Shown here piece after piece: positions 16,210 to 63,521 of a stretch of 64,000 bases of DNA. This DNA comes from Amoebophrya sp. A120 (lineage: Eukaryota > Protista > Dinoflagellata). The notes under the pieces are model-generated. The model was not told the DNA's origin. It saw only the letters and a list, made by a program, of their open reading frames with translations, and ran no database searches. How positions within the stretch are numbered: the stretch's first letter is position 1; every line of letters starts with the position of its first letter. The stretch is taken from assembly GCA_905178155.1 (NCBI GenBank), contig CAJINV010000005.1, positions 545,715 to 609,714 of the forward strand, written 5' to 3'. Position numbers and translations under genes: made by a program.

Positions 16210-18405
16210 TTATACCAGCCCATCCCGAATGCTTCCCCACTTTTTGAACCCTTTCGGCACGTTTACCCCTTCGGCGATCTCCTCGCAGCGCAGCGGCAGC
16301 GGCATGTTTTTGCAGCGGTATTACAATGAAAAACGCCCCCCACCCCAGAATTTGCAAAAGTTTCTGATGCAAAGTTTCGCAATGAAAACTTTTTGTCTTG
16401 CATGAAAGGATTAGGAGTCTTTCTGGTGCAGAGTTTACATCTAGGCTCGCAAGGTATCTCTTGCATTAGAGATTCGGCTGGTGCAAGGCTCTTTGCAATC
16501 CAAATTTGAGCTCTTCAGGATGGAAAATAATTTGTGATGCTGATACATGCAAGACGGGGAATGTTTCTATTGGAAAGGTTTGCAATGCAACTGCTGCCAA
16601 GTTCTGGGGTGCGGGCATTTTTCACTGTAATAAGCGGCGCCGGCTCTTCTCGATCATGTCCGGCGTCATGGTTTCCAAGGTGAACCGTATCAAAAGTAAA
16701 AGTGTCTGGGTCTGGAAACTTGTGATGCTGGGTGGGTGGCGTCTCATGATGAGGCTACAGATGCTGGCTCAGCATGACAAGTTTCTGAGCTCCTAGGTGT
16801 TGCCTATTCTGCATGACAAACTGCGCTTCTGCATCACAGAAAAACGGAGCTCTTGGGTAACGTGCATCACAGATTTAAGGGTCATGCCAGACAAGCATGA
16901 CAAACATGAATTCTTCCTGACCCAGACATTTTTACATTTGATAAACCGGTCCAGGTTGTCATACGCCAGTCCCTTCCGGTGCGTGTTGGAGTTGGGCGTG
17001 TGGGAGCCGTTGATCTTCGTCGGCTTGCTCCACTGCGCATAACAGAGCCTGCAGCGAAGCTCTGGCCACCCATTGTGGTCGATCAGCTCGTAGTACTGTG
17101 GATTTGTAAACAATTCCATCAGATACTCGGGCTCTTCGATCTTCCCGTCGTAATCCCACTGCGTCTTCGGGATTGGCCTTCCGTAGCAATCGATCGGCTT
17201 CAGGGAGAAAAGATCAATCTCCTCTTCCTCCACATCCTCGCAAATGGTTGACATGTTGTTTCCACCATGACCGCGAAACGCCGCGCCCTGAGCAAACTGC
17301 TGCTGGTTCATTGCGGATGCGGAGCTCGGCCAGGCGGACGAATGATACGAAGTTGCGGAGGAGTGGCTGTTATAGCTGACCTCGGACGACATCGTGGTGA
17401 AAAGCATGTCTGAATCAAAGCAATAAATTTGAGATAGTTCTGTATGTTATTTACGCAACTCTATAGCGCGAAGCGCTGAGCAAAGCATCGGGATTGAGAA
17501 GCCACGACAAGCGATCACATGCTTCTACGCAGCAAACGAAACTATGAAGGTACATCCATTGTTTTATTGCGTTTCAACGCAAAGAAAAACTGACCATGTG
17601 TACTAGCTGCGCTAAATCGTATATGTAGGAGACGTTCGGCGGTGTCCGAGCTGAAAGTGAACAAGTTTTGAAGATCTTTTGACCCAGACCTGCACACTAT
17701 CTCCATAAAACGCGTGTCGTCATCGTAACCGGAGTAGCAACTGGCGTTGCTTGACCCACCTCCGCCATTCGACGTCGTGAAACGTTTCTCCTCTTTAACC
17801 GGGCGCGGCACGAAGGACCGGTCGACCTCCTGCGCTGCGATGGCGCCACCGTCCGTGGGTTTGCAGACCGTTCCGAACTTGTCCCGGTAGTTCATGCCGT
17901 CAGTGGGGAAGGGGATCGCCCCCTGCTCGATTTTCTCGAGATATTTGTTTTTCAGTTCGTAGGATTGCGTCTGGACGTTCGACCGGTGCTTCGAAGCGAC
18001 CAGGTGGTCGTTTCCGGCTTGTTTATTACACAATAAACAATACACCTGCGATAGTACGAAGAGAGCAGAAGTTTGACCGTTTCCTGGTGGAGAGGACACA
18101 GCGTCCACTCGGTGTTTCTTTGTTCCAGAACAAACACGTTGATGGTGGATACATTTACCTAGCGTTCAATGTCGACATGGCAAAAATTCCAAGAAAAGTT
18201 CAAGCGCTCATCCAATAGATACGTGCGCCTGCCACGTGCTGCTCCACCGGTTTTCGAAGCAGTACGGCATGGCGATGATCCGCCATTTTTCCGGGACGTG
18301 GGTATCGTCGGGTTTGGAGCAAAACTTCTTTCCCAAATGGTCCACGACGAGAATCTCCTGCTGGTTCAGGTGGTTCAAATCGAAAAATGTTGCGTCGTCC
18401 ACCAT
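16210..18405 (-). CDS. Two-module CxxC..H..H zinc-finger-like protein, tandem paralogue of 19450-22360, with two introners
   Basis: Motifs MVDDATFFDLNHLN, CLLCNK..H..H, IPFPTDGMNYRDKFG, KPIDCYGRPIP and CRLC..H..H. After removing both elements the C-terminus reads LDRFTLETMTPDMIEKSRRRCKNMPLPLRCEEIAEGVNVPKGF, which aligns to the paralogue. Confidence 0.8.
16319..16632. mobile_element. Introner, family D, 314 bp, TSD AGCGG
   Basis: TIR TATTACARTGAAAAAYGCCC...ACCCCAGAA. AGCGG at 16314-18 and 16633-37. Removal gives SRRR-CKNMP in frame. Confidence 0.93.
16688..16943. mobile_element. Introner, family B (subfamily B2), 256 bp, TSD AACCG
   Basis: TIR TATCAAAWGTAAAARTGTCTGGGTC. AACCG at 16683-87 and 16944-48. 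Removal gives LDRF-TLETM in frame. Highly similar to 47475-47726. Confidence 0.95.
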
Positions 18406-19449: not shown

Positions 19450-22360
19450 TCAGCACTGCTCAACATCACTATCTTCAACATCGGAGAAGTGAACTCGCAA
19501 AGATGTTTCGGGAGAATGCTCCTTGATGGGATGTCGCTTCTGGGTTTTGGCTTTCTCGTACTCGTTCTCCGCATAAAGATCGCTTCGTCCTGCCGTGTCT
19601 TGGTCTTCGCTCTCACCCAACATCCTGCTGCGCTTTTTCTCCTTGTTTTTGTCTTTTTTCCTGGTTCTGGTTGTATTCCTGGAGCTGCTGATCTCTACCT
19701 CTACGGCGTCCCGTCTGGATCTCTGCTTTCCTCGTCTCTCTCCCTCGGAGGGTGGCGAGGACTCGTCTGATGAGGATGTCTCAAGAAGAAAGCTACAGCC
19801 GCAATCGCCGGCCTCTCGTGCCTTGTTGCCGCTCCTGCCATCTCCACCCGCACCCGCGGCATTCGACATCTGGGCTGAGCTGCTGCCTGGTGACTCCAGC
19901 GACTTCTCAAGGAGCATGGAGGCCCCGTCGCTGCCAACGAAACTCGCGTCGCCATTACAAAAGTGGTTCCTCAGCCGTTGCACAGCCTCTGCAAGCTTCT
20001 CGACCTGAGGAAGAGTGATCATTTTCTGCGGTTCCTTTCTACCAACCCTCTTCAGCCACTTCGCAACCCCCTCTGGCGTCCATTTTTCTCGTTCTTTGGC
20101 AAGGTCGTCGCTCGCGTCCTGTAAGTCTTCCCTGGCGCGCGCGAGCTTCTTCTCGAGCTTGAGCGTTTTAAGAACATGCTTGTGATTCTCTGCCACTACC
20201 TGGGATTTCTTTTCCCCCACATCAAAAAGCATCTGCTGCTTCTCTTCAAGCTTCTCATGTGCCTTGTCGAGCTTTTTTTCCGCTATTTCCAGTTTGTCCT
20301 GCGCCGCGTTTCGCTCCTTTCGCAAATCGGCATTCTCAGCTCGAAGCCTCTGCAATTCTTCTTGGCCCACCAACGGTTGTCCTCTTTGTCGGTACTGCGT
20401 ATGATCTTGTTGCTGGGAGAAAGCAGCTGTATTTCTGTTGTGGACTTGTTGAGTACGAGACGGAGGTGCTGGCGTTGTTTGAACTGTGATAGAAGATTTT
20501 GGAAGAGAAAATTGAGCATGAAACTATTATCACGCTCATGCGGATGGCGAAGTGTTAAAGTCTCGCTAGCCGATATGGAGTGAAGAACGACACTACCAGG
20601 GAACCTCATTGTTGATCATGAAGCTGTAGCTGAACTAAAGCCGATTAATCTGAGCGCATGAATCACGGCCGTGAAAGCGCCCTTACCTGTAGTTTCGGAG
20701 TGGGATGAACAGCTCGACGCAGCACTGCTCTCCACATCGTTCGGTACGACTGACGCTGGCGCCGGACGGCACAGCAGCTGTGGGCCACCAACAGACCTAC
20801 TGGTGGCCATGCTCTGTCCGCCGGTAATACTACTGTTGGAAAAGGGCGGAGCGTCGCCTCGGCGCCGTATTGGATAATTCCCGGCTTGCGAATACCCGAC
20901 AGGAACATTAACTCCTTCCACCAGCTCCGGAAGCGGCCTGGGCATCCCTTCGCAATTCCGGACGCTTTCTGCAATCTCCTGTTCCGTCATGACTTGCATC
21001 CGGTACTTTTTTACAGCGTCGCCCGCCCGGTAGACCGCGTCCTTATGCTTTTTACCGTCCGGCGTATGTGCGTGCGTGATTTTCGTCGGCGGCTGGGGCA
21101 TGTATTCCATGCAGAGCACACAGCGTAGCTGCGCATACCCGTGGAAGGCGAAGAGCTCGTAGCGCTCAGGGTGGTTGTAGATTTCGAGAAGGTATTCTGG
21201 GTGCTCAACTTTCGGGTTCGGTAGATATCGCCATGCGATGTCCGGCGGAATGGGTCTGCCGAATCGGTCGAGGGGCCGCAGCTTTTGCAACTCTCGGTCT
21301 GGTGGGATCATATTGGGTCTCTGACCAGCTGCACCTGAAGCGCCGCTTCCGAAATAGGGTCTTACCTGTGTAGTTTCTGTCGCAGCACTACAACTGCTGT
21401 AGGACCTGGCACTACTGCAAGAGCTGCCTCCTCCTGCACCTCCGTAGAAAAGTGAACGCTGACCGGCGTCGCTCCGCCCGTACACACTGTAGGCCGACTT
21501 CGGGACGTTGTTCGCTTCTCCGCCAAGCGCGATCCCCTCGTCGTCCGTTTCCCTCTCGCTTTCACTATCGCCGAGAAGGGTACAGGACGCAGCAGCGGAT
21601 TGGCTTCTAGTTCTAGGGCTGCTGCAGCTGCTGGCACCGCTACTGCTCGCCCCAAGAGGTCCCGCTCTACTGCAAGAGGTATTTTTCATGCGAGCACCGC
21701 CTAAATCAGGCTTTGGCTGCGGCGGGAAAGCGTCCGGGTGCGTGGACCGGTCCACGACCGATCCGTACCGATCACGGTAATTCAGTCCATCTGTGGGGAA
21801 CGGGATCTCGCCGCTTTCGAGCTTCCTGCGGTACTCGTTGCGGAGCTCTGCCCCTGCCCAGGGGCGGCGGCGGCGGTGCTCCTGCGCAACAACGTGCTCG
21901 CTCGTTGCGATCTTGTTACAGATCAGACACCGGATCTGGTCGTAGCTCTGCTCGAAAACGTTCACGTAGGCCCAGGGCTCCGCCGGGATAAGCCACTTGT
22001 TGGGTGCCATCGTCTCATCGGGGATGAGGTCGGTGAAAATCCAAGGATAAAACTGTGCATAGTGTAAACTAATTGTCTTTGGCGGAAAACAGCATAGCAT
22101 GACAAACGAACCTGTCATTCATGACAGCGAAAAGTTTCCAAGCTCACGCACTATGTGAAAACACTCATGCGACTCACTAGCCTATGCCTACGACGCATGT
22201 CCAGCATGACAAGTGTAAATGTCATGCACTTATGCACTGCTTTTTGTTTTTCTTGCATAGTGAAGGGGGTCCCGTTTATATCTGGAATCCAGCAGTTCTC
22301 GCGGTTCAGGTCTGCGAGATTGAACTTCGGCGGTTCATCAGTGCCCAGATCGTCTGCCAT
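19450..22360 (-). CDS. Two-module zinc-finger-like protein with C-terminal coiled coil, paralogue of 16210-18405
   Basis: MADDLG start at 22360. One introner, the 500-aa ORF 20616-22118, then a GT-AG intron probably joining ORF 19450-20373. Confidence 0.78.
22038..22259. mobile_element. Older degenerate introner, family F-like, 222 bp, TSD GTGAA
   Basis: GTGAA at 22033-37 and 22260-64. Ends AATCCAAGGATAAAA and (reverse complement) TATGCAAGAAAAACA. Internal GCATGACAA motifs. Removal gives NGTPFT-DLIPDE in frame. Confidence 0.85.
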
Positions 22361-23128
22361 TTTGTAAATGTACGGATCAATGAAAAAGAATGAAGAACGA
22401 CATAAATCACATAAGAAAGTACGTTGCCGAAATACGAAGACAAACAAGTAAAAGCTGATGACTTTGCGCACCAAATATTTGTAGGGTTTAGTTAACTCTG
22501 GGCAGAGACCTTGTGCTCTTGTCCTTGTGCAGCAATAGAAGTGTTATCGTAGAGGCCGAGTCCTCGTCGTTCTTAATTTTCGAAGAGTTTCAATTCACGT
22601 CGATAATACGTCTTCGCCTCCAGAACCAGATAGGGATTAGACACGCTCCCACGATATACATGCTACTTCACACATGCACATCATCTAGAACTACCAGCAT
22701 AACACGTGGTGGCGATCTTCATGTTGTAAAGAAGTGATCAGTGTTGCAGTGGTAGTCGAAAGAAACAAAGTAATCACAAATGCTTCGTTGATCTTTCTCA
22801 ACATCTGTATGAGGATCACAACGCGTGGTCTTGTTGTGTATTCTTTATCTGCACAGACAAGACGAAGACGAGCCTCATCGACAAAAAAAAAGACGGAGCG
22901 GCGAAAGTGGAACAAATGGAGGTTCTTACCGACAGACAAAGAGGCTGATCCTGATGTGACGGTGGTTGAACCATGCCTCAATAACCCAAGCACCAACCGG
23001 TTTCGCTTTTATTAGTTTGACGTAGCTACAACCAAGTCGCTCGAAGGATGGATAAGTCATTTTTTTCACAATTAATTGTCGCACAATGTATCGCCCTAGA
23101 ACTTCTAGTACGATGACTGTCATCTCTT

Positions 23129-24859
23129 TCATCTCAGAGCACTTCTTGGATCTTTTCCCCCTCGTGCCGCCCCTGCTTTTATCAAAGCTTTTTCCTCTGC
23201 AGTAGGAACCCACTTACGCACACACAGGCAGCTTCCGTCTGACAGCGTCCCCTCAAATGTGTTCTCTTCTTGCCGCTGCGGCAGAAGGTTTTCTTTCTCT
23301 TCATCGGACCTTCCTCTTCTGGCAGTTTTTGAACCTTCGCCTACCCCTACGCCATGCTGCGATTTGGGGCCGTATTTGATTTCGTTCTGATTCACATCGA
23401 ATGTACGACTAAGGAATGGCGCGACGCTGGATTTGGTCACATCGGTGGCGATTTTGTTTTTTCCAGTGACGCTCGAAGACAGCGGCTTCAAATCGGCAGA
23501 GAACTCCTGTGCGGGGAGCTGTTTAGAAGAAGTAGGTCGCTTTGTCACCGCTGGAGTGGTGCGAGCAACCTGATCCGCAGCCGAAAGGTTAAGAGCCGCG
23601 CTTACTTGGTCCGACTGATTTCTCCGCATCATGGCGCTTCTAGTACCGCCGTCGTGATTCGCCGATGAAGTAGCAGTTGCACTCGTCCGACTGTTCGTTC
23701 TCGAGAACTCCGAGCTAGCTGTCGCAGAGATTTCCGCTTCATCTCCCTGCGTTACAGCATTTTTCGTTCCGCTGTAGTACAACCCGGCTGAAGATCCGCG
23801 GTTTTTTCGATCCGCATGCAGGTGCACCTGTCGTGGCCGTTTCTGCTCCAGTAACGTCGGTTCTGTCTGCTGAAACGGCTCGAGCTTTCGACTCGCTCCG
23901 GCAGAGATCTGCTTCTGCTCCATTAAGCTTTTCGCGACGGAGTGCTCGAAATCTGGGTCTGGTGCGTCAACTCTTGTCTTGCGCGCCCCAGATTCGGGTA
24001 AAGCAGCAAACCCGGCTGCACGGTAAATGTCGTTTTCCTCATTTTCAAGTCCGTATTCGTTGTACACATCCTGCACCCATTTCCGCTTCGCTTTCACGAA
24101 GTCCCGCAAGCTCGCGCCGGCCGGGGCCTTGTGGTCGAGCGGATGGCTTTGTTGGGTCTTTTGCGCTTGATGACCGGCTATGAAATGCAAAAGCGTCATC
24201 TGGGTCTGGAAGGTTGGAACTTGTCATGCTAAATCTGAATGATGCAAAAATCTGTGTTGCGTGAGTGCCAAAAGCTGTCCACTTTTGACCAAGTTGAGAG
24301 GGAGTTTCTCATGCAGGAAAGGCATGATAGAGACCTCGAATAATCTGTCATGCTGGGTCTCGCATTCCAGACCTCATGGGTCATGGAAAACCTGCATCAC
24401 AAATCTTGCATTCTTCCTGACCCAGACATTTTTACGGTTGATACCGGCGCTCGAAAGCCTTCCTCGCTTGTGCTGCTGCAAAAAGAATTCGCCCCGGGCG
24501 CCGATTTTCCCCGCCGGGTCCAGTTCGTGGGGAAACTTTTGACCGGTGTCACCAGCACTCGGAGGTTTTTTGTCAGCGCCGGTGATGTGGTTTGTATTGT
24601 TGGGTTCGAATTTCGCAGAAACGTCTTGGAGCGGATTTTCGCTTGTGGGTTTATTGGAGCTGAGGCAGATCTTCTCGACAATGCCCGTCTTGGACAACTC
24701 GTTCCCTTCCCAAATCCGCACGGATTCCAGCCTTCCGCCCGGGGCACGTACACAACCGACCCAGTTGCCTTGCGAGAGATCCACTACTGGGGACGAGGTC
24801 GAGGTTGGGTCGAAGCGCTTGGCGGCTTCGCCCTGATAATTTTCCGAGGGAGCACCCAT
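23129..24859 (-). CDS. Hypothetical low-complexity protein with one introner; 3' end uncertain
   Basis: ORFs 24374-24859 and 23129-24199 fuse in frame (LSSAG-HQAQK) on element removal. Confidence 0.7.
24179..24443. mobile_element. Introner, family B body with family-A-type left end, 265 bp, TSD CCGGC
   Basis: CCGGC at 24174-78 and 24444-48. Body highly similar to 25803-26064. Left end TATGAAATGCAAAAGC. Confidence 0.94.
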
Positions 24860-25401: not shown

Positions 25402-28400
25402 TCAAGCCATCGACGACGCAGTGGCCGCGTTTGTCCCGCCCGCCGATTCGTCGTCAGGCTCCGATATCATCGTATCCAGGTCCATCGGCACCAAAGGCGT
25501 CTCCGTTTTCCCGCGCTCGTCCAACGTCAGCTCCCCATTGCAGGTTTCCAACACCTGCGCGTCCACTTTCTTCACGAACGTCTCAAAAGTATGAAATGCA
25601 AAAGCATCGTACTAGTATAAATCGCATGACAAATTCCCTCAGCATGAAAAATGGAATTTATAATGCGGATTTAGGTTAGGAGGGAGATTTGTGATGCATG
25701 ATTGCGAATACTACGAGTACGATACTTTTGCACAGGATAAAAAGCCCGACACGCCAACTCGTCCGCCGGCTCCTCGCAGTCCTCGTCAACATCCAAAACC
25801 GATATCAACTGTAAAAATGTCTGGGTCTGGAAGAATGCAACTTGTCATGCTAAACCTGAATGATGCAAAAATCTGTGTTGCGTGAGTGCCAAAAGCTGTC
25901 CGCTTTTGACCAAGTTGCGAGGGAGTTTCTCATGCAGGAGAGGCATGATAGAGACCTCAAAGAATCTGCCATGCTGGGTCTCGCATTCCAGACCTCATTG
26001 TTCATGGAAAACCTGCATCACAAATCTTGCATTCTTCCAGACCCAGACATTTTTACATTTGATAACCGACTCGCCGCAACCGTGGATGATGCCGTCTTTC
26101 AAAAGTTGCGGGTCGGTTTTCCGGATAAACGTCGCCTCCAGCGCCCGGCAGCTCCCGGCGAGCTGGTGGATTTCATTCCTCGCCTTGGCGTAGGCCGTGC
26201 AGGCCTGCTTCACGGTCTCGTGGACCGGGACCGCCCGGTCGTACATGTTGATGCTCTTCATTGCGACGTCCACTGTGTGCGGGTCCGGGAAGTCGCCACG
26301 GTCCCGGATCGCGCTGATCTCCGCTGCAGTCAAACGCAGCTCTTCGTACTTCTTCAGCGCGGGGGCGGCGAGGGATTTCGCGGACGGTTTCGGGACTGTG
26401 TGCGAGATTTGCGTTTTGGAGGTCGTCACGTCAACATCACAAGCTTCGCATGTTGTGTGCAACGTGCTATTGATTGGATTTTGGTGTTGATGTACAGTAC
26501 TCGATGTGTCCCTCACCTCTAACGAGTATTAAGTTTAGACATGAAGATCGATAAAGAAAACAAAAGGTGTGTTTTTCTTTTTGCAAGGCAAATAGCCCTT
26601 TTACCTCCGGGCGTCTCGCCTTCCGCTTCCTCCTCTTCCATTTCATCCGCATGCTCCTCTGCATCCTGCTCCGCGGCCTGTTGGTTAACACTTTTCCCAG
26701 GTTCGGGGACCGGTTTGGGGTGATCCAGCTTGTACTCCAACTTTGCCCGCTCTGGATTCATCTTCATTTCTACGGGCGCGAAATCGCGCTTCACATCCTC
26801 GACCGCCTCTTTATCGATCTCATCCGACTTCCGCTGGGCGGCCGCGTGGTGCTTGTGGTGGCCGTGATGCTGATTATGGTTGTACTGCTGGTCTCCGCCT
26901 GGCTGCTGCTTCGCTGTTGACCCAGAAGCTGCCTGCTGTGCCGCGGCATCCTGTGCCGCAGTATCAAATGTAAAAATGTCTGGGTCTGGAAGATTGCCAG
27001 GTTTGTCATGCACATTTTGCATGACTCCTGATGTCTGTGATGCATGCCCTAGCATCACAGATTTTGTGAGGGCTTCCTGATGCCTATACCGCATGACAAA
27101 TGCTCTGTCCGTGTAGCAAAACTTGGACTCTCTTTGCTGCTCATGCAATACAGATTTTTTTAGAATCCAAAATCAGCATGACAAGTTGGATTCTTCCAGA
27201 CCCAGACACTTTTACAGTTGATACGCAGCCTTGTGCGACGAAGAAGACATGATGGACATCAGCCCGACGGGGTTTATATCCTGTGCAAAAGTATCGTACT
27301 CGTATAAATGCATTACAAGTTTCCTCAGCATGAGAAATAAAATTTGTAATGCTGATTTACCTTAAGAAAAAGATTTGTAATGCATGATTGCAATACGAGT
27401 ACGATACTTTTGCACAGGATAGTTTAGCAGCGCCAGAGTATCTTTGAAATGCGCAAAGAAGTTGTGCCAGTTCGCTAGGGGGCCGCTGGCGGTTTTTTCT
27501 TTGGCCTTGTCTGCGTCTGGCGGTGGCTTTGGCTTTGCTGCTGGCGGGGGTTTGGCTTTTGTAGCATCAGCAGGAGTGGGCGGTGTGGGACCAGCAGCCG
27601 CTGGGGCTTCGTTGGCAGCGAAAGAAGTGGTGCGGGATGTAGGCTGCTTCACCTGGAGCCCGATATCCAGGAATTGTGTCACATTCAACTGCATCGGGCC
27701 GTTATCCTGACGTTGTTCCTGCAGCGCAAGAGACGGTGGCTTCCGTTTTCTTGCGCGGCCTTTACTTCCAGTATCCGGATGATGTTGTCCATTCGCACCA
27801 CGATGCTTTGCCTTTTTTCGTTTATTTGCCTTTCGCGCCGAAGCCTTCTCGTTCGCATCTGGTTCATCGCTTCTGGCGTCCTGCTGCTCCTCGTTGCCAA
27901 CTACAGGTTTTTTCGCTTTTGTGCTTGGTCTTGCTGCGGCGATACTACCGTCCGCAGCTTCAGTTGCACTTCGTTTTCCCAAGACCGCATCTTTCGCTGC
28001 CGTTCCCGCGCCCTCCTCCTCCTGCTCTCTTCTGGCTTTGTTCAATACTTTCAGCGCGGAGTCCAGTTCCGTTACGAACGGATCTGTCTCCTCCCTCGTC
28101 TGCGCGTCGTACTCGTCGAATTCGTCCATGACCTCCTGTTTTCCCTCCTCCGTCAGCCCCGGCACGTTTTTCAACACGTTCCAGGCCGCCTCCCGTGCGG
28201 TTTTCCGGAGAATGTCCGGGCCGAGGCGGGCCAGCATGCTGTGATCCAGTTGGCCCATCAGCCGCGCGGAAGACAGCGTTTCCAACGCCTTCGCGCCGCC
28301 GTTCGAAACGAGCGTCTCGACGTCGATCCTTTCTCCCTTCTTCATCATCTTGGTTAGGGGTTTCAGGGTCCCAGCATCTAACCCGAGGACCGGCATCTGC

Positions 28401-42075: not shown

Positions 42076-45000
42076 CTACGTCTCGTCAAGATCGTCATCC
42101 AAATGACTAAATGCTCCCCGCGCTCCTGCTATAGATGTAGAATTTACTTCTTGTGTTTTTGCAACACCACCCGTAGCCGCGTCACCCGAGGATCCCGCTG
42201 CAACTTTCGACGCTGGACCCAGCACGTGCAAGATTTTGGGTCGCGGAATCACGGTTGTAAAGGCCCGCAACGGTTTAATTTGGTTTTGCTTCATCATTTC
42301 TCTCGTTTTGCTTTCGTAAGTGTCTTCGACAAGTAAGACCGGTGGTGCAGCTGCAGCAGCCGATAGGGCCGACGCATGATCAGCAGTAGCAGAAGGGACG
42401 CTTTTTGCCTCACCATTTTGCTTCTCGGTACCCCCGACACGCGGTCTCTCTCCTGAGGTTTTGTTGATTTTCGCCCGAGAAAACTTCGATCCTTGCGATG
42501 TACTCGGCCGCGACGCCGCAGTGCTTGTGCTCGGTCGTTTTTGTTCTTTCTTCTCCTGCGGATTGTTTATGCATTGCAAAAGTATCGCACTCGTATAAAT
42601 GGCAAATTTCCTCAGCATGAGAAATAAAATTTGTATATGCGGATTTAGCTTAGGAACTAGATTTGTAATGCATGTTTGCAATTACTACGAGTACGATACT
42701 TTTGCACAGGATATTGTTGAGTTTCAACCAATTGCCGGTGCAGGCGATCCTGGTGGCGGTTGTTGTACTCGCTGCAGACGAATGCGGTAGCGGAAACTCG
42801 TCCGGCTCACCATTGTGCTGACCACCACTGCATCGCTCAACCAAACCGGGATGAGTCGTCAGGCTGGTCCCACCTCCGACTCCTATCGCTGGCACAGAGG
42901 GCGCTGTCTGTGCTCGCGATGTAGTCATCTCTGCTGCAATGTAGTCTTGGCGCTCTCGGTTTGTCGGGGCGAAAAAGCTGTGCATTGGTGTTCTCGAGGA
43001 CGGCGGCGGAGAGTTTAACCCACCGGTTGAGGTTGTACCAGGATGCGGGGGAGGTGGAAAGTGTTGTAGATTTGAGGAAGAACTCCGGCTTTGAACTTGC
43101 GCTGCGTGCAATTGCTCCAGCAAACTCTTCACTTTCTCCCTGGTTTTGCGGTTTTCATGCGTCAAGCGGTTGCTCCACCCGTGTGTCAAGGTGTTGGTCC
43201 GGCTGTTCGAAGATGCGCCTCTAGGGCTCGTCCTTGGCCTTCGGTCGTGCTGTGTGTGCTTCTTTTTGCAAGTCCTACCCTGCTCAGAGGACGCCGCAAC
43301 AAGGATAAGCTCGCTGGAAGACGAAGCTGCAACTTGATTTATTTTACCTCGATTCGCACGCGACGCAGAGCTTGACTCATTTTCGCTGCAGGAGCTGTGG
43401 AGGTCGTAGCTTTGTTCTAAAGAACGCTGCTTCTTGTAGTAGTCCCGCGCACTTGTCTCCTCCACGTACGTATCGTACGTCCGGCCCGCTTTCGTGCGCT
43501 TGTTCTTCCGTCCAGCTAATTGCTCGAGCGGGGAACTTTCTGCTGCTGCGGATGCTTTCAACCATCGCCGGAGCTTTTCGAATAGCAATTGTCGTTCGTC
43601 CACACTCCGCCAGGGTTCGCAGATGAGCTTTACGACGGGGAGAAGAACGTCTTGGACGCTAGGTTGGTCTAGTTGCTGGTGAATCTGCCCATAAGCAAGT
43701 CGTGGTCCGTTTGCGCATTGCGCCGATTCTTCTTCAATCGTCGGACTTAAATCCTGTCCTGCTTGTGGGCTGTTGTTACTCGGCGAGGCTGTGCTATGGT
43801 GATCCGAAACGACCTGTGCGCTGCTCCTCTCCACAGTTGGGGAGCCTAGGCCTGCGTCTACCGGCACAGTAGAACTTGCTGAGTCAGCCGCTGGATTTCC
43901 GGAGGTAGTTGTAGCACTCGTCTGCACGACCTGTCCCTGTCCCCGCTCTCCTGAGCTGCTGGTGTTTTTTGCAATCATAATCTTCGCGATATTTTTCTCA
44001 ATCTGTGCTTCCTCCTGCTTCGCCATTGTTTCCACTGCCGACACCCGCCGCTTCAACGACTTCACTGCTAATTCCTCCTCCCGCCTAAGGTGGCTCATGG
44101 TGTCGCGCAAATCCCCCGCGATGGTCAGCACGTCCGCACGGGTGATAAGTTTCGCCTCTAATCTACTTTCCGCGGAGCTGATACTTTGCCCCATCACCCG
44201 TCGCAAATCCTCAATTTGCTTGCTCACCTCCTCCCGCACCGCGTACTTGGATTTCGACTGAGTTTCCGCTTTCTTATCCCGTTCCGCAAGAAAGGTGTCC
44301 AGTGACTGATTTTCCTTCAAACCGAGCGCGTTCGCGACTCTTTGCTTCACGAAGTCCTGCAGGGAAAAACTCTGTTGTTGCAGCTGTGCAGTGCTGCCCA
44401 GGGAGGCAGAAGCAGTGGGGGAAAAGGGCTGAAGTTGTTGGCTTCGTTCCACATGCTCGGCGCCTCCACCGCTCCGGTCTGCTTCTGGTTCCTCCTCGCC
44501 AGTGGCATCGTCGTCAGCCTCGTTCATTCCCAGAGAAAACACACCGTCACCTAAATTCAGCATTGCCTGCACTCCTGTGCGGACGCGTGCTCGGAAGTCT
44601 TTCTCATTTGCGAATACCAAGTTCCCGCCTTGGCGATGTGAAGTTCCTGTGGTTTGGGTGTCATGGTCGTGGTCCGCATCGTCATTTTCTCCGCCAGCAT
44701 TTCCGTTTCCGTCGGAAGCATTGCCAGATCCGAGTTTTTTCTCTTCAGTAGAATCTTCATCTCCAATGGTGCCGGTTTCGGAACTAGACTTGTCTTCGCG
44801 TGGCCCACTATGGCTATGTTCCTCACTTCCTTCTCCAAATTCGAACTCTTTTTCCTCCTCCGCCGCTAGTAGAGCCGCATCTTTTTTCCGCTCCGACACG
44901 GTCTCCAGCTGGGCCCATAATTTCTCCTCCTGCTCCCTCACCCGGTCCTCTAGCTGCGACAACCTTTGCAACTGCTCGCTTTGCGCGGTCACCAGCCCGC

Positions 45001-45918: not shown

Positions 45919-48884
45919 TCAAGTCTTCGTAAAAATCACCGGGTCGAGCGCTATTTTCGACCGTTCCAATTGCCGTCTCCTCGTTGCTTCTTGCCGCCGA
46001 TACTCCTTCGGCAGCAGGTCAAACGGCAGATTTTGCCACCAGTGCCGGTGGTCGTACAGGTGATTCCGCGTTGGCCGACGGAACCATCCGGGCTTTCCTC
46101 CACCTCCCGAGGATTGACCACCCGCCCTGTTCAGCGACAACAAGGCGCCCTCGGTGAACACACTCGCACGCGTCCGATGGCTCCCACGAAAAGCCGCGCC
46201 CGCATTTGCGTCGGAGTAGTTGTAGCTGCAGCTTGCGGTTGTTCCGTGGGTATTGTATCCACAAGCCCCCGGCGGATAGCTTGATTTCCCACTGAGAATC
46301 GCGTCAATTCGCATTTGCAGCTCCGTCTTCCTGGTGGCCGCTTTGTTCAGGGTATTCGCAGATGAGCCGGAGGTTGTGCACCCCTGTTTGAAAGATGTTC
46401 CGCTGTTCTCGTCCGCAGCTTCTGCCTCTTCCTCCAAACTCGGAAGGGGGTCGAGATATGGATGCCGCCGAATCTCGTCTTATCCAAGAAAAAAACATTG
46501 TAGGTGTATACAATACTTTTTTGGAAGAACAACATTACAAATTTGTCTGGCATGACAGCAAAAACCTGTCATGCGCAGATAGTACGCGAAAACGCCCCTT
46601 AATGGACGCTGCGACGCATGCCAAGCATGACAGACGCAATCATCTTGCATGTGGAGCATCACAAATTTACACTAACAGCGTTTTTTTCTTGGATACGTCT
46701 TCGTCGTCATTCAGAGCATCGGCGGAAGCTGTACCGGGGTCCGTTGTAGCGTTTGTCCCTGGAGGACCCGAAGTTCCTTTCGGACTCGTTCCGGAGGCTG
46801 GCTGCACGGACTGCCGGAAGGATGACCCTCCAGGGCCAACGGAAATGCGTTCGCCCGTCCGCTTCGCTTGCTCGGCCGTGCGCTTGCGGAGAAGGAGTTC
46901 GCGCCTAGAAAATGAAAAAGCATGATGACGCCCTTTTTGCGCTTCAACAATTAGAAGTGTATGAGCATGTTGCGGAAAAACTGTTACACCGGCCGGGAAA
47001 TGGAAAAGATCATTAGTTACAATTCAAATTCTACCTCTCCAACTTCTGCTTCTGTTTCCACTGCTTCTCGAGTTTCGCCAGGATTTTTTGTCGCAGCCGC
47101 CGGTCCGTTTTCGGGGAGTGGTGCAAGTGTCGCAAGCGCACGACTATGGTGCTCTCAACTGTTACATTCTCAGCTGTTACATAAATTTGTGATGCTAAAC
47201 CGACCGAAACCACGCATAAATTTGTGATGCAAGAATGGCAAAACTGAAAGGGGGAAGATTGCGCCTTTTGCATGACAGATTTGGCACAGATTCTCAGCCT
47301 GTTTGGGCCTTCCAGAATTTGTCATGCGCAGCAGCTTGATCGCGTCGAATCTGATTGCAGTTTTGCATGACAAATCGTGTAACAGTTGAGAATGTAACGC
47401 TTGAGAACGCCATAACGACTGAATTCACCGGATCGTACGTGTTCACCAAGTTCAAGTTGCCCGTGGGCAGCAGTTATCAAATGCAAATATGTCTGGGTCT
47501 GGTAACTTGTGATGCTGGGCGGCGTCTCATGATGAGGCCACAAGTGCTGGCTCAGCATGACAAGTTTCTGAGCTTCTATGTGTTGCCTATTCTGCATGAC
47601 AAACTGCGTTTCTGCATCACAGAAAAATGGAGCTTTTGGGTAACGTGCATGACAGATTTAAGAGTCATGCCAGACAAGCATGACAAACATGCATTCTTCC
47701 CGACACAGACATTTTTGCAATTGATAGCAGTCGTGACAGCTTCTCGCGCGGGTCGAACTGGTCCCGCTCGAACTCCAAGTCGCCCAGGATTTCCGCAAGG
47801 GTCTCCCGCCTGGATTCTTGCGTGGTAGTATGCTACTTACTCGTGTGGCTCAAAATCAAACAGCCGTTTTTCAAGAGCATGAAACGTAAGGAGCAATTGT
47901 GCTGTCAACATTGTACTCAGAACTGCCATCACAAGTTGCACTTACTTCTCATCAGAATCTGTGTCCGAGTTGTCGTAGGGGTCCCAAACCTCGTCCTCCA
48001 TGGAGGCGTGTTTTTTCAGTGCGTTCTGACCCAGCGTCGCGCTCACGCCGTCATCCCTCGTTCGCAAGCGTTCCAGGTCCGTCGCGTGGAATGTCGTGCT
48101 GCGACGGTAGTTGGCTACTGTGCAGAGCAATGGAGCATTGAAACAAATCACGCACAGCGACAGATTGGTTCATACCTTCGCAACAGGGAGAGAACATAGA
48201 CATACAAAGGATTATATGTACCAAACAGGATCATGTACCACGCGAGACGTTCGCGGGCGGCGCAGGTGTAGAAGCAGCGGCTCCCTCTCCCTTACCCGAT
48301 GCTGCAGATGCCTCCCCGGATTTCGTTTTTCCAACGCCGATCTGTTTGTTCGTCACCCCCGTGCGCATTTTGAGCTTATCCGCGAAAGCTCGCGCCATGA
48401 CCTGGGCCCGCGGTGACATGGATAATAATGTTGGCTGCTTGGTACAGGCGCTGCTTGGAAGGGAAAACTGCTTTGCAACGCCGACGAGAGCGCGTTCCTC
48501 ATCCTGGTCATGATTCCCACCCTGCAGTGATGCAGAGGCGGTAATTGCGAACTGAGGTTTGCCCACTGGTTGCAGCTGCGACGAAGTTGCAGCCGCGCTG
48601 TACGACCCAGTGAACAGGGTCGGGGAGGTCTGCAAGTGCCCGGTGCTTGTGCAGTTTTTGCCGATGGCGCTGTTGGTGATGGTAGAGCTCGTCAAGCAGG
48701 ATGAGTTGTCCAACCGCCAGGAGGAGGTAAGCCTCCTTGGCCCCGCGGCATCACCAAGCGGCACACTGCTCGTACCCCCGGCTGTCGAGTTCGAGGTCCG
48801 GCGCTGCGACGGCGCCGAGGGCTGGTACCCGGAGATACTGGGGGTGGCATTTGTGAAGCTGAAGGTCGGTAGTTGAGACGACAT
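45919..48884 (-). CDS. Multi-exon hypothetical protein with three TIR elements and conventional introns
   Basis: Joins KLSRL-LPTGN, VVMA-TIVVRL, KLER-RELLLRK (GT-AG) and DDED-EIRRHPY..LEEEAE all stay in frame. Confidence 0.75.
46481..46695. mobile_element. Introner, family F, 215 bp, TSD CGTCT
   Basis: TIR TATCCAAGAAAAAAA. CGTCT at 46476-80 and 46696-700. In-frame join. Confidence 0.93.
47152..47408 (-). mobile_element. TIR element forming a canonical GT-AG intron, family C, 257 bp
   Basis: About 40-bp imperfect TIR (TCTCAA..GTTACATTCTCARCTGTTACA...TTTGTSATGC). Minus-strand ends GTTCTCAAG...TTGAGAG. The frame is supported by the next GT-AG junction. Confidence 0.82.
47475..47726. mobile_element. 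Introner, family B2, 252 bp, TSD GCAGT
   Basis: GCAGT at 47470-74 and 47727-31. Highly similar to 16688-16943. In-frame join. Confidence 0.95.
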
Positions 48885-54867: not shown

Positions 54868-56547
54868 TTACAATTTACTTTCCAACACGATCTTTGCCCC
54901 GCCATACTCTCCCCGCCTCTTCAGCCCGTCCATTTCCCTCTGTCCTTGCCGCAATTCGTTCAGCATTGCCGGGGATTGCGCTTCTTTCAGCGTCAATATC
55001 TCCAGCTCCTGATCTTCCGCCGTACCCAGGTGTTTCCAGCTCTTGTGCAGCTCTTCCAATCTCTCGACGTACAACGCATGTAACCTTTTCACCTCTGCGC
55101 GGAACACTTCGCTATCTGTTTCTCCCTTCACCATCTTCACCGGAATCTCGATCGGCGCGCCGAAGACCGTGTGCAAGGGCGTTTTTGCCGGAATCGTCGG
55201 AAAAAGCAAACTACCGACCGTGTTGTTGAAATTGTGAAAAACGGGGAGAGAAAACTGCATGTTTTTCTGCATCAGGAGTTGAAATTTCCGCAAAAGCGGG
55301 TTGAAAACCTGCCGATACAAAGCCGTTTCCCCGAAAACTAAAACCGGAACCAGCGGCGTCCCGGTGCGTAAAGCCACCTCGACGAAGCCCATCCTGTCTT
55401 TCAAAACGATCCGCATCTTCCCGCCGCCCGAGAGCAGCGCCTCGTCTGCCCCACCCACATACAGCCCAACGGATTTTTTCGCTTCTAGGTTCCTCACCAC
55501 CTTCTCCTTTTGCGCCGTAGTCAATCCGGCCAGCATGCTCCATTCGGCGGCCCCGGGCAGGTGGAAAGCCGCGTCGACCGTGCAACAATAAACCTTACCC
55601 AAATTCGGGTTTTTCTTGTGCAGCAGCTTTGTTTCCAGCCCCGTCCCCTCCGCAAACGTCGGCGCCATGGAAAGCGCGAGGACCCCATGCGGATGGACCG
55701 CGAAGAGGAAGTTTTCGTGGTTCGCTTTTTCCAACGGGTAGGTAAACACGTTTCGGTGCGGGTAGTAGGCGGAAATGAGCTTGAAAATGTAGCTGTCCCG
55801 CAAACCAGGGTCGCCCCGGATTCTCCCCGAGTGCTTCCAGGGGTTAAAATAGGCGAGGACTTCGTACAGTAGGAACCCGAAGGCGAACTTCTTTCGGTTG
55901 TACCCGATGGTGCGCTGGAAGAGCTGCTTCAAAAAGTAGAGTAAAACGGCGGAGTTGATGCCTGTCTGCGTGCAGACCCAGAAGAGCACCGCGGCCTGGG
56001 GAAGCGGGAGAATTTTTTGCAAAATGAGACCGAGTTTGGTTGAAAACTCCGGTTTCGAAACGGCGTGCGGTTCAGGTGGGTGTACAAGGGTGATATGTTT
56101 ATTTTCCAGTGCGGCTGAGGAGGAGGTCTTCTGGTTCCACAACACTTTCGCTTCTTGTTCGTCGTCTTTCTCCTTCTCACTGCTTTCTTGCGCTGGAGTT
56201 ATTTTCGCTGGTAACAGCCCCGGCGTCGTCCGCGGCGTTCTGGTTCTTCGCGTTGGATAATACTGGTGCCCATTAAGTCGAGATGGAGACTCGTGCTGGT
56301 CCTGAAATTGAAGTTTCGCGGAATCATTACATTCACTCTGGTCGAAGTATTTCATGTTTGAGTTTGACGTCAACTCGAGTTTGGCCAAACTCATAAAATC
56401 GTTCGTAACATTGGGCCGAGCGAGGCTAAGAAAAAATGCCGAAGTGACTTTGAATTTAGAAAACGTACGACGATGTCGCAACGGCACGACAGTACAAAAA
56501 TCGACAAAGATATCCGTACCAGGTACAGACGGAACCACACGAGGCAC
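54868..56547 (-). CDS. DGAT2: Diacylglycerol/monoacylglycerol acyltransferase (DGAT2/MOGAT family); start uncertain
   Basis: YYP, HPHG, YVGGADEA and RMGFVEVALRTGTPLVPVLVFGE motifs. Confidence 0.9.
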   Translation of the reverse strand: MPRVVPSVPGTDIFVDFCTVVPLRHRRTFSKFKVTSAFFLSLARPNVTNDFMSLAKLELTSNSNMKYFDQSECNDSAKLQFQDQHESPSRLNGHQYYPTRRTRTPRTTPGLLPAKITPAQESSEKEKDDEQEAKVLWNQKTSSSAALENKHITLVHPPEPHAVSKPEFSTKLGLILQKILPLPQAAVLFWVCTQTGINSAVLLYFLKQLFQRTIGYNRKKFAFGFLLYEVLAYFNPWKHSGRIRGDPGLRDSYIFKLISAYYPHRNVFTYPLEKANHENFLFAVHPHGVLALSMAPTFAEGTGLETKLLHKKNPNLGKVYCCTVDAAFHLPGAAEWSMLAGLTTAQKEKVVRNLEAKKSVGLYVGGADEALLSGGGKMRIVLKDRMGFVEVALRTGTPLVPVLVFGETALYRQVFNPLLRKFQLLMQKNMQFSLPVFHNFNNTVGSLLFPTIPAKTPLHTVFGAPIEIPVKMVKGETDSEVFRAEVKRLHALYVERLEELHKSWKHLGTAEDQELEILTLKEAQSPAMLNELRQGQREMDGLKRRGEYGGAKIVLESKL

Positions 56548-56657
56548 TTTGAAAACGAATCAACGACGACCAAAAACTGACGAACGGGAACGCGGCTAAC
56601 AGATAAAGAAGGAAATGATCAACGCCAACAAGAAAGAAAAATCTAAATCGTTCACAT

Positions 56658-58403: not shown

Positions 58404-60613
58404 CTAGTCCGTCGTAGTCTGTTCGACCCTCTCCTCCGTTTGCGCCGCTTGTCGTTCCTGCAGCAGCGCGACGATGAAGGCCGTATCTGCTGTCCGGATG
58501 CGCACGGATTGGTCTTGCAGCGTTGCGACAAAGTGCGGCGACAGGTCAAAGCCGATGTAGCAGTCACGGTCGGGATGCGTGAAGTTCGCTGCAGTGCCGG
58601 CCTCCCGCAGAATGGTCGTAAAAACGCAGACCTTCGTCGCCAGCGGGGTGACTTTTTCCGCAATTTTGCAAAACCGCTCCTGGTCGCCGCGAAACAGAAA
58701 CTGCGCGTCGAGCCGGTCCAACCGCGCGCTCAGGCTTGCCCGCTGCCGCTCCACGGCTGCGAGGACACGGCTTTCGAACCGCCGGACAATCAGCGGGAGA
58801 AGGCAGTTTTTGACCAAGAGTTCCGCCAACTCGCACGGACAGGTCGTGCTGGCTGCGTTGTACTTGGAAGAAGTACTAGTAGAGGTATTTTCATCTCGAC
58901 GCTGGTGGAGTGATGCGAGAAGCGCTTGGTACAGATCGTTCCCCGTGATGGAAAGGCTTTCATCATTGGAGTTGTTACGGAGGTCGTGGCTCTGTCCTGG
59001 ACTCGAGTATGCGTCGCCGCGCAGCAAGACCACTAAACCAACTGTAAAATTCTCTATGAAAACGAAATCTCTTGTCACAGTCACATCCGAGACGTTTTGT
59101 AAGGCGTTTTGCCTTACAAAACGTCTCTGATGTGACTGTGACAAGAGATTTCGTTTTCATATTCTCCACCAAGTCGAGGATGTGAAGCAGAAAACGCCGC
59201 CACAACACCTCGGCTTCCACCTGGCACCGCTCACCGGAGAGAACGTGCCGCGGCTCCTCGTGGCCGAGGGCGTCGCCGTCCGTTCGGGGGAGCGGGAGGG
59301 GGGCGATGTCGACCAAGAAACGGAAACCAGCCATCTCTGCAGTTATTTCCTGCTCCGCGTCGTCTCTATAGTTTGCCTGCTTCAGATACGTGCCGACAGA
59401 AACCGGCGCCTTTTCGCGCTGCTCGTCGTCCAACTTTCGTGGGAACGCATGCATCAGCCGGTGCGCCATCAAATCGCCGGCGGCGTTGCAAAAACCTGGG
59501 ATACCAAGCACAGTTTGTTAACCGTACAAGAGTTCGTAGGATCATTCATAGTAGACCAAAAAGATACACTGTCACAGAAAATGGCCACACAATAACCGTA
59601 AACGAATCCATAGGAAACAGATAAAATAAGTAATAGATACTGTGCACTGCTTCAACAGTCGGAGCTGCCAGGCGTTGATTGGAAGTGGACATGTTCATCG
59701 GAAGCAGGTCTTGCTTCGTGCAAAAGTCTCGTAAGGCGCCCGCGAGACGCAAACCGTTGTGAAAGCTGAAGTTGTGCCTCCAAAAGTGCACTTCTGCAAG
59801 CTTGTCGCCGTACACAGGTCGCTTCGCCCTGTCCGAAAGGTTTACGACAAGCCTGCCGACGACGTCGTCCTCGTTGGCAACAACGACCAGGGCCGGACGT
59901 GCCCGAAAGCGGGGATCGCCCGGTTGTTGAAACAGCCCGAAAGGGAAGCCCTGTGCCGATACCATGCTATGCTCGGACTCGTTCAGCAGCAGGGAGGCCT
60001 TGACCAGAAACCCGGCGACCGCGCGGGACGTCGTCGTACCGGGTGTTTTCCTCTCCCGGTCGTGCATCGCCTGCTGGGGAATCCGGATGGCAGTCACCGG
60101 CTGCGTATGTTGTACTGTGTTCATATGGTTTCGGTTTTGATGTTGCACACCAGGCTGCTGCGTAACTTCGTCCTGGAAGAAGTCGTTTCTCCCACAGTCC
60201 AATTTCCCCTGCAACTCCCACGCGCGCCAGCTCGTCAAGTCCGAGACCCGCGTGCCCACGCCGAGGCAAAACGCCGCATCGTTGCTCAGCTGGGGTGCGG
60301 TACAGCACAGGAGACAAAATTCGCTGACGTGTTGCGCGAGCTGCGCCCGCCCGCGGAGACTCGCAATTTTCAGACTGCGATCCCTCCAGAGAAACAGCGC
60401 GGTCATGCAAAGGTCGCGGAGGAAGCACGCCGGAAGCCGGGTGCGCCGCGCCTGCCGCGCTGGTTTTTGGAGGGGACCCGAGTGAGTCGTGAAGTGGACG
60501 ACACCTGGAGGTGCTGCTTCCGCTAGAGGAGCCCCGGACGTCGAGATTCCACTGCTTTCCTCCGTGCCCTCGAAGCTGCTCTTCGCCGTGGATTCCGTGC
60601 TGGTGCTATTCAT
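58404..60613 (-). CDS. Hypothetical protein with a hairpin introner
   Basis: ORFs 59546-60613, 58975-59511 and 58404-59144. The last two fuse as DLVEN-FTVGL. Confidence 0.72.
59055..59161. mobile_element. Hairpin introner, 107 bp, TSD TTCTC
   Basis: 51-bp arms with one mismatch and a 5-nt loop GTTTT. TTCTC at 59050-54 and 59162-66. Confidence 0.97.
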
Positions 60614-60841: not shown

Positions 60842-63495
60842 CTACGGATCCTCCACCGCAGCCAAGTTGTCCACCGCACCCAAGTCGTCGGTTATCGCGA
60901 CACCGGTGTGCAACACGAGTGCGAGGCCTTCCATTACGGACCTGGCTTCTGGCGCGTCGAGCATCACGTTGACGCAGTGACGCAAAAGACGCGCGCTCTG
61001 CCCTCGTTGTGCTTCAGGAAAAAATGATGTTGGCAGAGGATTATTTCGGTTTTGCCCTTCGCCTGCACTAGATCCGTTTTCTTCTGGTCGTGAATTTATC
61101 TGCTGCAACCCTGTTTCCCAGTTCCTTTCTGCAATTGGCCACCGGAAATCTGCCGCGTCACCCACCTTCTCCTGCTTTTGGTTTATTGTGTTGTTGCGCG
61201 TGTTAGTTGTTTGCGTTCTTGCGGTGACCGTAGTAATTGCAGGTCCTTTCTTGTCTCCACGAGGCTGTCGTTCCTTGGATATCTTCTGCTTTTCACCTCT
61301 TCCTCTGCTTTGGTAACGATCGGTCATTTCGCTTCCCGCCCGCACTGCCATTTTCGCCGTTTGCAGGGTGCGCGGATCGTGGTAGTTTTCGAAAAAGCCG
61401 AGGTCGTCTTCGATACTTTCCTCGCTGTGGAGAACGTCCTCTTTGTTCTCGTTGTCGTCTTTCGAAATCGGGCGTCGGTGCGATAGATGTGGATGAACAG
61501 AAGCTCTATCTCCAGCATTAATATGTTGATCTTTGCCAAAGCAGTACCCCATCTTCCGGCACAGCAGCTCCCACAAACTACTGGGAACCTCTAACGCGGG
61601 AAGCAAGCCGGGAAACGCGCAGAAGGAGACACTCATGTCTAGTTCGATCGCGGCCAGAATGTAGATCGCTACCGCGTGGGTCTGCAGGCGCTCCATGTTC
61701 TGCCTTTGGCGTTTTTTTATGGCGAGGAGAGACGCGGGGGACCGGTTTGAAAAGTGCGCCTTGGAGCTGCTCCTGCGTCGTTCGCGCTGCTTTCCTTCGC
61801 CGCCCACCGCACCGGCCTCAGCGGGACGAAGATGATCTTCAGCATCAGGACCTTCTTGAGAAGAAGAAGATGAGCAGGAAAAGTCGTGCAATTCATGATC
61901 TAAATCCAGCTCCGTCGCACCCAGCCGGTAGAGAAAGGAGCGAAATTTCAACTTGCCCAGCGGGTCCTCGATGTCGCCCTTGGTATCCTGTGCAAAAGTA
62001 TCGTAGTCGTACTAATTGCAATCGTGCATGACAAACCTGGTTTCTCAGCAAAGTCAGCATTACAAATTCCATTTTTCCTTCTGGAAAAATTTGTAATGCG
62101 ATTTATACTAGTACGATACTTTTGCAGTTCATACTTGGCGACGTTCACCAAATGCGGGTGCAAGGGGAGTTTGATCAGCCGGTAGGTGGTCGTCAGAAAC
62201 TTCTTGCAGTGGTTGAAACCCAAGATCGCCTTGGTCAGCGCGTCTTCGAAATCCGTTTCGACCGCAGCTCGCTGCTCGTACGCGGTCTCCAGACGCGCAG
62301 TGAATATCAGAAGGAAAAATCCCCCCACCCCATACTCAAACGCAGACTTGTGGCCACAAATCAGCTTTGTCATGCTAGAAGGGAAAAGATGCGGACTGTA
62401 GTGCTGGTTGGCGTGGGAAAGCCTTGCACCTTCAGCATGACAGGGGGCAGCTGGAAGTGGGAAACAGCATGACAAATTGCCTGCAAACGAGGCCACAGCT
62501 GCGTCTCTTGGCCTTCTAGCATTACAAGTCGATTTGTGTACTCAAATACAGCATCACAAACTTCTTCGTTTTCGATATGGGGAGGGGGGATTTTTCCTTT
62601 TGATAGTGAAGTCCTGCTCTTCATCCGCTACTTCCGGCGGAAGAAAATCACGGGGCGCGGGGGGAACCTCCCCTGTGGTCGTGTCGCCAGCTTGTTTGTC
62701 GTTGTTCCGTTGAACTTCTACGACTCCAGCGTCCGCAGCAACACCTGACGCCGCATCCTCGCCATCGGTCTCCTCGTCGAGCAGGAGATTTTCATTTTCC
62801 TCTACGAGCGCCCCTGATCGCACAGTTTTCGTAGTCTTCGTCGCGGCCACGTTAAGAAATGAACCCTGCTCCTGTCTTGTCGGCGTCGGCACATGCTGCA
62901 GACTCGCGGACAGACTGCCACTGTGCGACGACGAGGCGCTGTTGGTCGCGGAGGTCAAAATCCCCAAGTGGCTCGAATCGGCAAACGAAGAAAGATCATC
63001 GACAGCGGCTGCTTGCTGCCTGCTCGCGGTCAGGCTGTGCGATGCGGAGGACGAAGAGGAGCTACTTGAGGATGAGGAGCTGCAGCTCGCACTATAAGAG
63101 CAATCGTTCTTGGTCTCCTTGGTTGCGCTCTCTGTTATTTCTGCTGTAGCTGTGGTCTTTCCATTACGAATAAATGTTCCACCACATTGCTTTCGGTTTG
63201 TTTTCGCCCTTTGCTGATTCTGCACAATCTGCTCTAATTCATCTCCGACGGCGCGCAGGAACGTCGCCGTCTGACTCTCCGCGAGAGAAGAGGACACAGA
63301 GCGCAGCTCGGAAGAAGAAAACGTTGCGGCTGCGGGGGTCGAAGACCGCGATCCCGACGAACCTTGGAGGTCGTCCCGGTCGGAGGTTATGGAGTTCTTC
63401 AACACGTTGATCTTCTGACGGTTGCGCTGCGGTGCGGCCGGTGGTTCGCGGTCCAAAGCAGTAGCAGGAACACCAACAGCACCATTGATAGTCAT
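60842..63495 (-). CDS. Hypothetical protein with two introners
   Basis: In-frame joins EQDFT-ARLET and NVAK-GDIEDPLGKLKFR. Confidence 0.8.
61984..62133. mobile_element. Introner, family A, 150 bp, opposite orientation to 25590, TSD CTTGG
   Basis: Ends TATCCTGTGCAAAAGTATCGTA and TACGATACTTTTGCAGTTCATA. CTTGG at 61979-83 and 62134-38. Confidence 0.95.
62305..62605. mobile_element. Introner, family E (D-related), 301 bp, TSD GTGAA
   Basis: TIR TATCARAAGGAAAAATCCCCCC.CCCCATA. GTGAA at 62300-04 and 62606-10. In-frame join. Confidence 0.95.
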
Positions 63496-63521
63496 ATCTA
63501 CAATTTTATCGCAAGACTCAC

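Follow-up and report, generated by a model that had tools for sequence, protein, structure and literature searches.

The 64,000-nucleotide stretch of Amoebophrya sp. A120 analyzed here (contig CAJINV010000005.1, positions 545,715 to 609,714; hereafter the window, numbered from its first base) carries a series of short elements with TAT…ATA ends, and these are introner elements of this organism by every feature tested: an A120 host, TAT-N7-AAA ends, a direct repeat, non-canonical removal, and repeated families. We propose, with a probability of roughly 85%, that these elements are short insertions in exons, non-coding, with inverted-repeat ends and a 5-bp repeat on either side, which were likely spread by one DDE transposase and are likely spliced out together with exactly one copy of the repeat, with restoration of the reading frame. 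A DGAT (PF03982) open reading frame (ORF) on the minus strand of the window (54871..56559) matches the gene model GSA120T00018779001 with 100% identity over 83% of the query, while its next named relatives, from Amoebophrya A25, reach 47% and 43%; the GSA120T prefix denotes A120 gene ids in the supplement of the A120 genome paper (PMC7789003).

The terminal pattern itself is already known, as it is stated in that genome paper. Farhat et al. (2021, PMC7789003) describe 29,850 introner copies in 1,954 families in A120, with inverted repeats made up of TAT, seven less-conserved bases, and at least three As. These are non-canonical introns with inverted repeats of 8–20 nt and direct repeats of 3–5 nt, and they are described as having no internal transposase. 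The window elements share the organism, the end pattern, the direct repeats, the large number of families, and the lack of an internal transposase, and do not differ in kind from the published elements. The differences lie in detail. The published direct repeat is 3–5 nt long and variable in position relative to the annotated splice sites, whereas in the window it is exactly 5 bp and abuts TAT/ATA; the legend of Fig. S19 of the same paper does show one 5-bp example. Families without AAA, a common internal motif, and removal in both orientations are absent from the text portions that were compared, figures excluded. Because the pattern has been published, its recovery here adds little, and the details reported below are increments.

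The window elements were located by two scans. The first looked for TAT…ATA pairs of 60–1500 bp between two exact copies of a 5-bp repeat; inverted repeats counted as real when at least 13 of 20 bases matched. It returned 15 pairs, 14 of which have real inverted repeats, compared with a mean of 0.03 and a maximum of 1 in 100 block-wise dinucleotide shuffles. In the second scan, the terminal letters were left free, an inverted repeat of at least 15/20 was required, and rows starting in the satellite at 6000–7800 were dropped. All 13 matches with a 5-bp repeat begin with TAT; a single non-TAT match was found at 6 bp, and none at 7–10 bp. The direct repeat extends to 6 bp in none of the 14 window elements. 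A degenerate 15th copy of 222 bp (22038..22259) retains an exact 5-bp repeat, but its first base is mutated, giving AAT instead of TAT at the left end, and its inverted match is 11/20. An earlier sequence-only reading of this stretch, which had presented TAT-N7-AAA as a terminal code shared by unrelated element families, quoted eight ends; all of them are present, at 15 places, and the eighth (22259) belongs to the degenerate copy. The same reading took the elements to be miniature inverted-repeat transposable elements (MITEs). Their anatomy agrees with this, since they are short, multi-copy, and devoid of coding capacity, with terminal inverted repeats (TIRs) and a target site duplication (TSD) of fixed length; that they are also introns in coding exons had been overlooked.

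All 14 elements with real inverted repeats were found by scanning and were grouped by clustering their bodies after trimming 30 bases from each end. Family B (about 260 bp) is represented at 16688..16943, 24179..24443, 25803..26064 (with a long predicted terminal RNA stem), 26962..27223 (in the orientation opposite to 25803), and 47475..47726. Family A (about 150 bp) is found at 25590..25739, 27277..27421, 42568..42713, and 61984..62133, the last being opposite in orientation to the other three. The element at 46481..46695 belongs to a family of 209–225 bp and that at 62305..62605 to a family of 292–321 bp. The remaining elements are a near-palindromic copy of 107 bp (59055..59161), a 314-bp copy whose body is a singleton in the window and which lies in the same minus-strand gene as the copy at 16688 (16319..16632), and a member of a family without AAA at positions 11–13 (47145..47414). 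At 24179–24200, the left end of a copy with a family-B body matches the family-A end at 25590 over its first 15 bases, suggesting an exchange of ends between families.

A larger sample was assembled from 135 loci (638 kb) retrieved by the family-B end pattern, so that family B is over-represented in it (126/255). Of the 135, the 78 listed by name are all on JACKZZ01… contigs. The loci have element families, not unique sequence, in common with the window. They may derive from A120 or from a relative; the RPB1 gene in one of them is 86% identical to its best match, P0018, and the matches listed include no RPB1 of A120 or A25. Requiring both a 5-bp repeat and at least 16/20 matches between the inverted ends left 262 distinct elements, of which 244 start with TAT. 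None of these 244 extends to a 6-bp repeat, and the repeat shows no base preference, all four bases occurring at each of its positions. TAT together with the 5-bp repeat is a near-invariant code that holds across families, as the sequence-only reading had maintained. Its second fixed block, AAA at positions 11–13, is instead a majority feature of a longer A-tract. In the window, AAA is present at 26 of 28 ends and is missing from both ends of 47145–47414; in the loci, it is present at 435 of 488 ends and in 160 of 199 distinct 16-mers. Positions 4–10 had been described as free, with positions 11–13 alone of importance, but among the 199 distinct ends the bias extends to position 4 (C or G in 184), position 9 (G in 146), position 14 (A in 164), and position 15 (A in 153). 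The proposed spacing of one helical turn between the two blocks is unsupported because the A-tract covers positions 11–15 and whole families lack it.

The bodies had been considered unrelated as well. Clustering divided 255 elements into 20 families, 7 of which are represented in the window and 13 of which carry AAA, the other 7 being without it. The internal motif TG[TC][CG]ATGC is common to 233 of the 255 elements, and the families are therefore not wholly unrelated. The motif is approximately 70-fold denser inside the window elements (40 matches in 3,095 bp) than in the rest of the window (11 matches in 60,905 bp), and 3 of these 11 matches fall in the degenerate copy at 22038–22259. Chance convergence of unrelated superfamilies on A-rich ends, with the code arising as an artefact of the choice of examples, would be in keeping with the seven families without AAA and with a locus set fetched by the pattern of one family, which makes up about half of it. 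We nevertheless regard it as a very remote prospect in view of the TAT ends and 5-bp repeats in 13/13 assumption-free window matches and 244/262 locus elements, the AAA in 13 of 20 families, the shared internal motif, and the genome-wide result already published (PMC7789003). Three locus elements (L008:3083-3344, L075:8955-9219, and L026:2010-2333) have 5-bp repeats and, as scanned, non-TAT boundaries; they may represent other families or mis-set ends.

Evidence for removal from RNA came from contigs of sequencing run X2, which is likely an RNA run. These contigs span 5 of the 15 window copies and lack all five, each loss amounting to the element plus one 5-bp repeat. In record 3, exactly 270 bases (265 + 5) are skipped at 24179..24443. 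Record 4 is short by 422 bases (155 + 267) and by 417 bases (267 + 150), which by length arithmetic correspond to the four elements at 25590 and 25803 and at 26962 and 27277, respectively. The same record also skips a canonical GT-AG intron of this gene (26396..26604, minus strand), which serves as an internal control for X2 as spliced RNA. Contigs of the DNA run X5, in contrast, continue from the flank into the elements.

The extent of the removed segment was also examined through reading frames and protein alignments. For 10 of the 14 window copies, the frame running through the junction is longest when the element is removed with one repeat copy; at 42568, this removal joins 947 and 163 open codons. 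For the degenerate copy at 22038–22259, it leaves an open frame of 566 amino acids, compared with 497 and 477 when 3 or 4 extra bases are removed. The gene interrupted at 16319 and 16688 has a tandem paralog (20616–22118) without these insertions; the alignment between them scores 290 when five extra bases are removed with each element, and 203–255 for the eight other combinations. In the RPB1 gene of one locus (L038), all six tested elements gave the same answer: among 0–8 extra bases, only removal with five gives an alignment to P0018, a related RPB1, that is both top-scoring and free of gaps. These six lie in the aligned region, and a seventh beyond it was left out. The tandem paralogs at 15900–18165 and 20616–22543 encode a protein that lacks annotation and shows a CxxC…H…H pattern (possibly a zinc finger), and one contains two introners where the other has none.

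Cuts of the GT-AG or GC-AG type could be placed in 0 of 14 window copies and 0 of 6 RPB1 copies; of the 67 copies in the loci that were assigned to a strand, 3 would allow one. The elements lack the GT/GC-AG ends of canonical U2 spliceosomal introns. They are found in both orientations relative to the host gene (16 versus 8 in the loci), and the oppositely oriented copies at 25803 and 26962 lie in one gene and are both missing from one X2 contig. Since the two ends are inverted copies of each other, a stem would be available in every transcript. We lean slightly toward a mechanism in which modified splicing machinery joins the exons inside the 5-base repeat, guided by this stem and blind to orientation. 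The ends would pair in each transcript, and the stem would bring the two 5-base repeats next to each other; joining within them would then give back the original exon, whichever way the element is inserted.

Inverted ends that abut a repeat of random sequence and a fixed length of 5 bp bear the trace of a 5-base staggered cut by a DDE transposase or integrase, and it is usual for MITEs that a single enzyme serves many short families. The enzyme was probably a cut-and-paste transposase of the integrase/IS3EU/Ginger type that cuts with a 5-base stagger, reads TAT, and binds the A-tract and the internal motif. Insertion by such a candidate enzyme would generate the random 5-bp repeat, with cleavage at the TAT end and with the A-tract and the repeated internal motif as putative binding sites. 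The many short families may use the enzyme of an autonomous partner in the manner of MITEs. The sequence-only reading had supposed that one enzyme or factor recognizes all families; the shared signature and the invariant 5-bp repeat speak for this, and a common trans-acting factor is the simplest reading of them, although the factor itself was not found.

Several points weigh against the proposed origin and removal. Farhat et al. report no transposase in A120 and argue against a general mobilization by transposase (PMC7789003). No transposase or integrase Pfam family was detected in 167 window ORFs of at least 120 amino acids or 119 locus ORFs of at least 250 amino acids; this search covers well under 1 Mb and is no evidence of absence. 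The RNA status of X2 is a tool's guess, backed by the skipped GT-AG intron, and four of the five skips were deduced by adding up lengths. A search of sequencing runs listed no carrier of the sequence that is recorded as RNA; of the runs with such a record, X8 and X9 yielded 91 and 2 partly fitting reads, respectively, with no junction. The frame test has no clear best solution for the copies at 47145 and 47475, and in the loci (n = 203) frame alone is a weak guide, with five extra bases as the sole best in 90 cases, three in 49, four in 21, and ties in 43. The predicted terminal RNA stem has a z of -9.4, which is not evidence of function because any inverted repeat folds. A strand test for RNA-level selection on pairing found 53 G-U versus 50 A-C mismatches (p 0.84), and in the absence of a G-U bias such selection is unsupported.

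Long copies with an intact transposase ORF, for which the sequence-only reading had recommended a search, were found neither in the window nor in the 638 kb of loci. Two apparent long elements, L046:6001-10208 and L035:6001-7031, consist of separate copies that lie on either side of host exons and pair by chance, and the window segments 18821–22259 and 21103–22096 share a 5-mer without an inverted repeat. Seven orphan ends followed by long inward sequence proved to be degenerate short copies or interrupted ones. A real long copy of 972 bp lies in the RPB1 gene (L038:6787-7758); it was set aside as non-coding, its interior having no ORF of more than 83 amino acids, and the Pfam search did not include these short ORFs. 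The ends of this family-B copy are perfect over 30 bp, and about 700 bp of it is other sequence; it is possibly the remnant of a longer parent or carries a captured segment. Two end patterns searched in viral contigs gave 0 matches each.

The terminal pattern could alternatively be, for the most part, a signal for splicing. Elements of mixed origin would then have been kept only if their ends suited intron removal, and the shared factor would read RNA and not DNA. Every tested copy is exonic and its removal obligatory, even in RPB1, and the failure to detect U1 small nuclear RNA (snRNA) in both Amoebophrya strains (PMC7789003), like the lack of a reported A120 transposase, would suit such a selection. 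Yet an invariant 5-bp repeat of random sequence marks one staggered-cut integrase and not splicing, the sense strand shows no G-U bias, and the copy with a mutated terminal base is still in frame. We therefore consider this explanation unlikely as the main one, while noting that a splicing signal and a transposase origin are not mutually exclusive.

With regard to the transposase origin, the placement of the enzyme among known superfamilies was also considered. The sequence-only reading had excluded superfamilies by TSD length, using a list that proved incomplete: hAT5 makes 5-bp repeats (PMC12730594), and Ginger2 repeats are 4 or 5 bp (PMC10045372). The 5-bp TSD is common to hAT5 and the introners, a comparison that concerns repeat length alone and keeps hAT5 among the candidate superfamilies; a literature search on hAT5 termini found nothing. 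The TG..CA termini of Ginger1 and Ginger2 differ from the TAT..ATA ends found here. Its other lead, IS3EU, fits in the ends and fails in the repeat. IS3EU elements have TA..TA ends and repeats of usually 6 bp (PMC10045372), as against 5 bp here. IS3EU and GingerRoot resemble the introners in their TA..TA ends and the lack of a strong target preference, and an integrase-related enzyme would suit a short stagger (PMC10045372, PMC12730594, and PMC6839031); they differ in their 6-bp repeat, and in the passages compared they are not described as introns. The families may still be non-autonomous members of the IS3EU/GingerRoot superfamily with an unusual 5-bp repeat. Some families here begin with TATGG, similar to the TAYGG..CCRTA ends of IS3EU in rust fungi, and A120 family 38 of Gozashti et al. 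(2025, PMC12130899), described below, has TA/TA ends, a 5-bp repeat, and integrase-like homology. On the other side, the repeats of IS3EU typically measure 6 bp and those of GingerRoot 6–8 bp, a length reached by 0 of 244 elements, and no transposase was found that could be placed in a tree. We rate this membership as rather doubtful, and judging by the repeat length the elements would not be filed under IS3EU/GingerRoot, nor, judging by the ends, under Ginger.

In the classification table of Gozashti et al. (PMC12130899), 43 of 58 A120 families, by our count, are TIR DNA elements of unknown superfamily and one is Mutator. Family 38 has integrase-like homology and is entered there under Ginger, with the remark "5-bp TSD, TA/TA termini"; the main text contradicts the table and treats family 38 as lacking the Ginger homology, termini, and TSD. 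The A120 families in that study are short TIR DNA elements of 106–340 bp, in agreement with the lengths of the window elements, the comparison being by length and not by family number. Family 38 also resembles Copia/Gypsy sequence (PMC12130899), and Farhat et al. prefer a copy-paste spread of introners (PMC7789003). Both statements would accord with an RNA intermediate, the excised intron being reverse-spliced or retroposed without a DNA transposase and the 5-bp repeat being made by a borrowed integrase of the long terminal repeat (LTR) type; the lack of a reported A120 transposase and the 5-bp repeats made by most LTR elements point in the same direction. The presence of both orientations relative to the host gene is not expected of reverse splicing into mRNA, and the ends are TAT…ATA inverted repeats and not TG…CA long direct repeats, which makes this route improbable.

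The closest parallels to the A120 introners as introns are those of euglenids and Fritillaria (PMC11282704). They likewise have a MITE-like origin, inverted repeats that pair in RNA, TSD-like junction repeats, and non-GT-AG ends, and they belong to other lineages and have other terminal motifs. In Fritillaria, the introns undergo U2 splicing and AG-AC/AG-AT ends are preferred, and euglenid introns are excised as circles (PMC11282704). These introns are functional counterparts of the A120 introners. In the literature searched, to which most subscription papers did not belong, we found no later paper naming the transposase or the splicing route.

The transposase origin and the stem-guided removal can be combined into a bolder proposal, which we put forward tentatively and at less than even odds. 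One undescribed DDE lineage, with TAT ends, a 5-bp stagger, and repeated TGTCATGC-type putative sites, would have built all families, and hosts of the Amoebophrya type would remove them without regard to orientation or GT-AG ends through the paired TAT…ATA stem, joining the exons inside the five bases. If this is true, a splicing route exists that perfectly erases a transposon insertion at any exonic site, even in RPB1. The results raise two questions: which enzyme spread approximately 30,000 elements in a genome without a recognized transposase, and how non-GT-AG introns are removed where U1 snRNA is undetected. Both searches are narrowed by the exact 5-bp repeat, the removal of the element with one repeat, its occurrence in either orientation, the dispensability of AAA in some families, and the shared internal motif.

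Other features of the window and the loci were also recorded. An Rfam search of the window gave 0 matches. At 6130–7700, an array of a 39-bp unit with a palindromic core is arranged as two inverted blocks and has the look of a satellite or a large foldback element unrelated to the TAT introners, and 63490–63990 is AT-rich, with 31-bp and 18/42-bp units in tandem. Three very GC-rich segments (3500–6200, 11600–13600, and 49000–50800; up to 69% in 2-kb bins) contain overlapping open frames with no Pfam or Rfam match. In a 1,548-amino-acid ORF on the minus strand (30310–34953), an NPHP3_N/NACHT-like NTPase region precedes WD40 repeats, and one locus (L011:591-2090) contains an uninterrupted ORF of 500 amino acids for a C-5 cytosine DNA methylase. 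Nearly all long ORFs of the window are on the minus strand, consistent with the clustering of genes in one direction that has been described for Amoebophrya.

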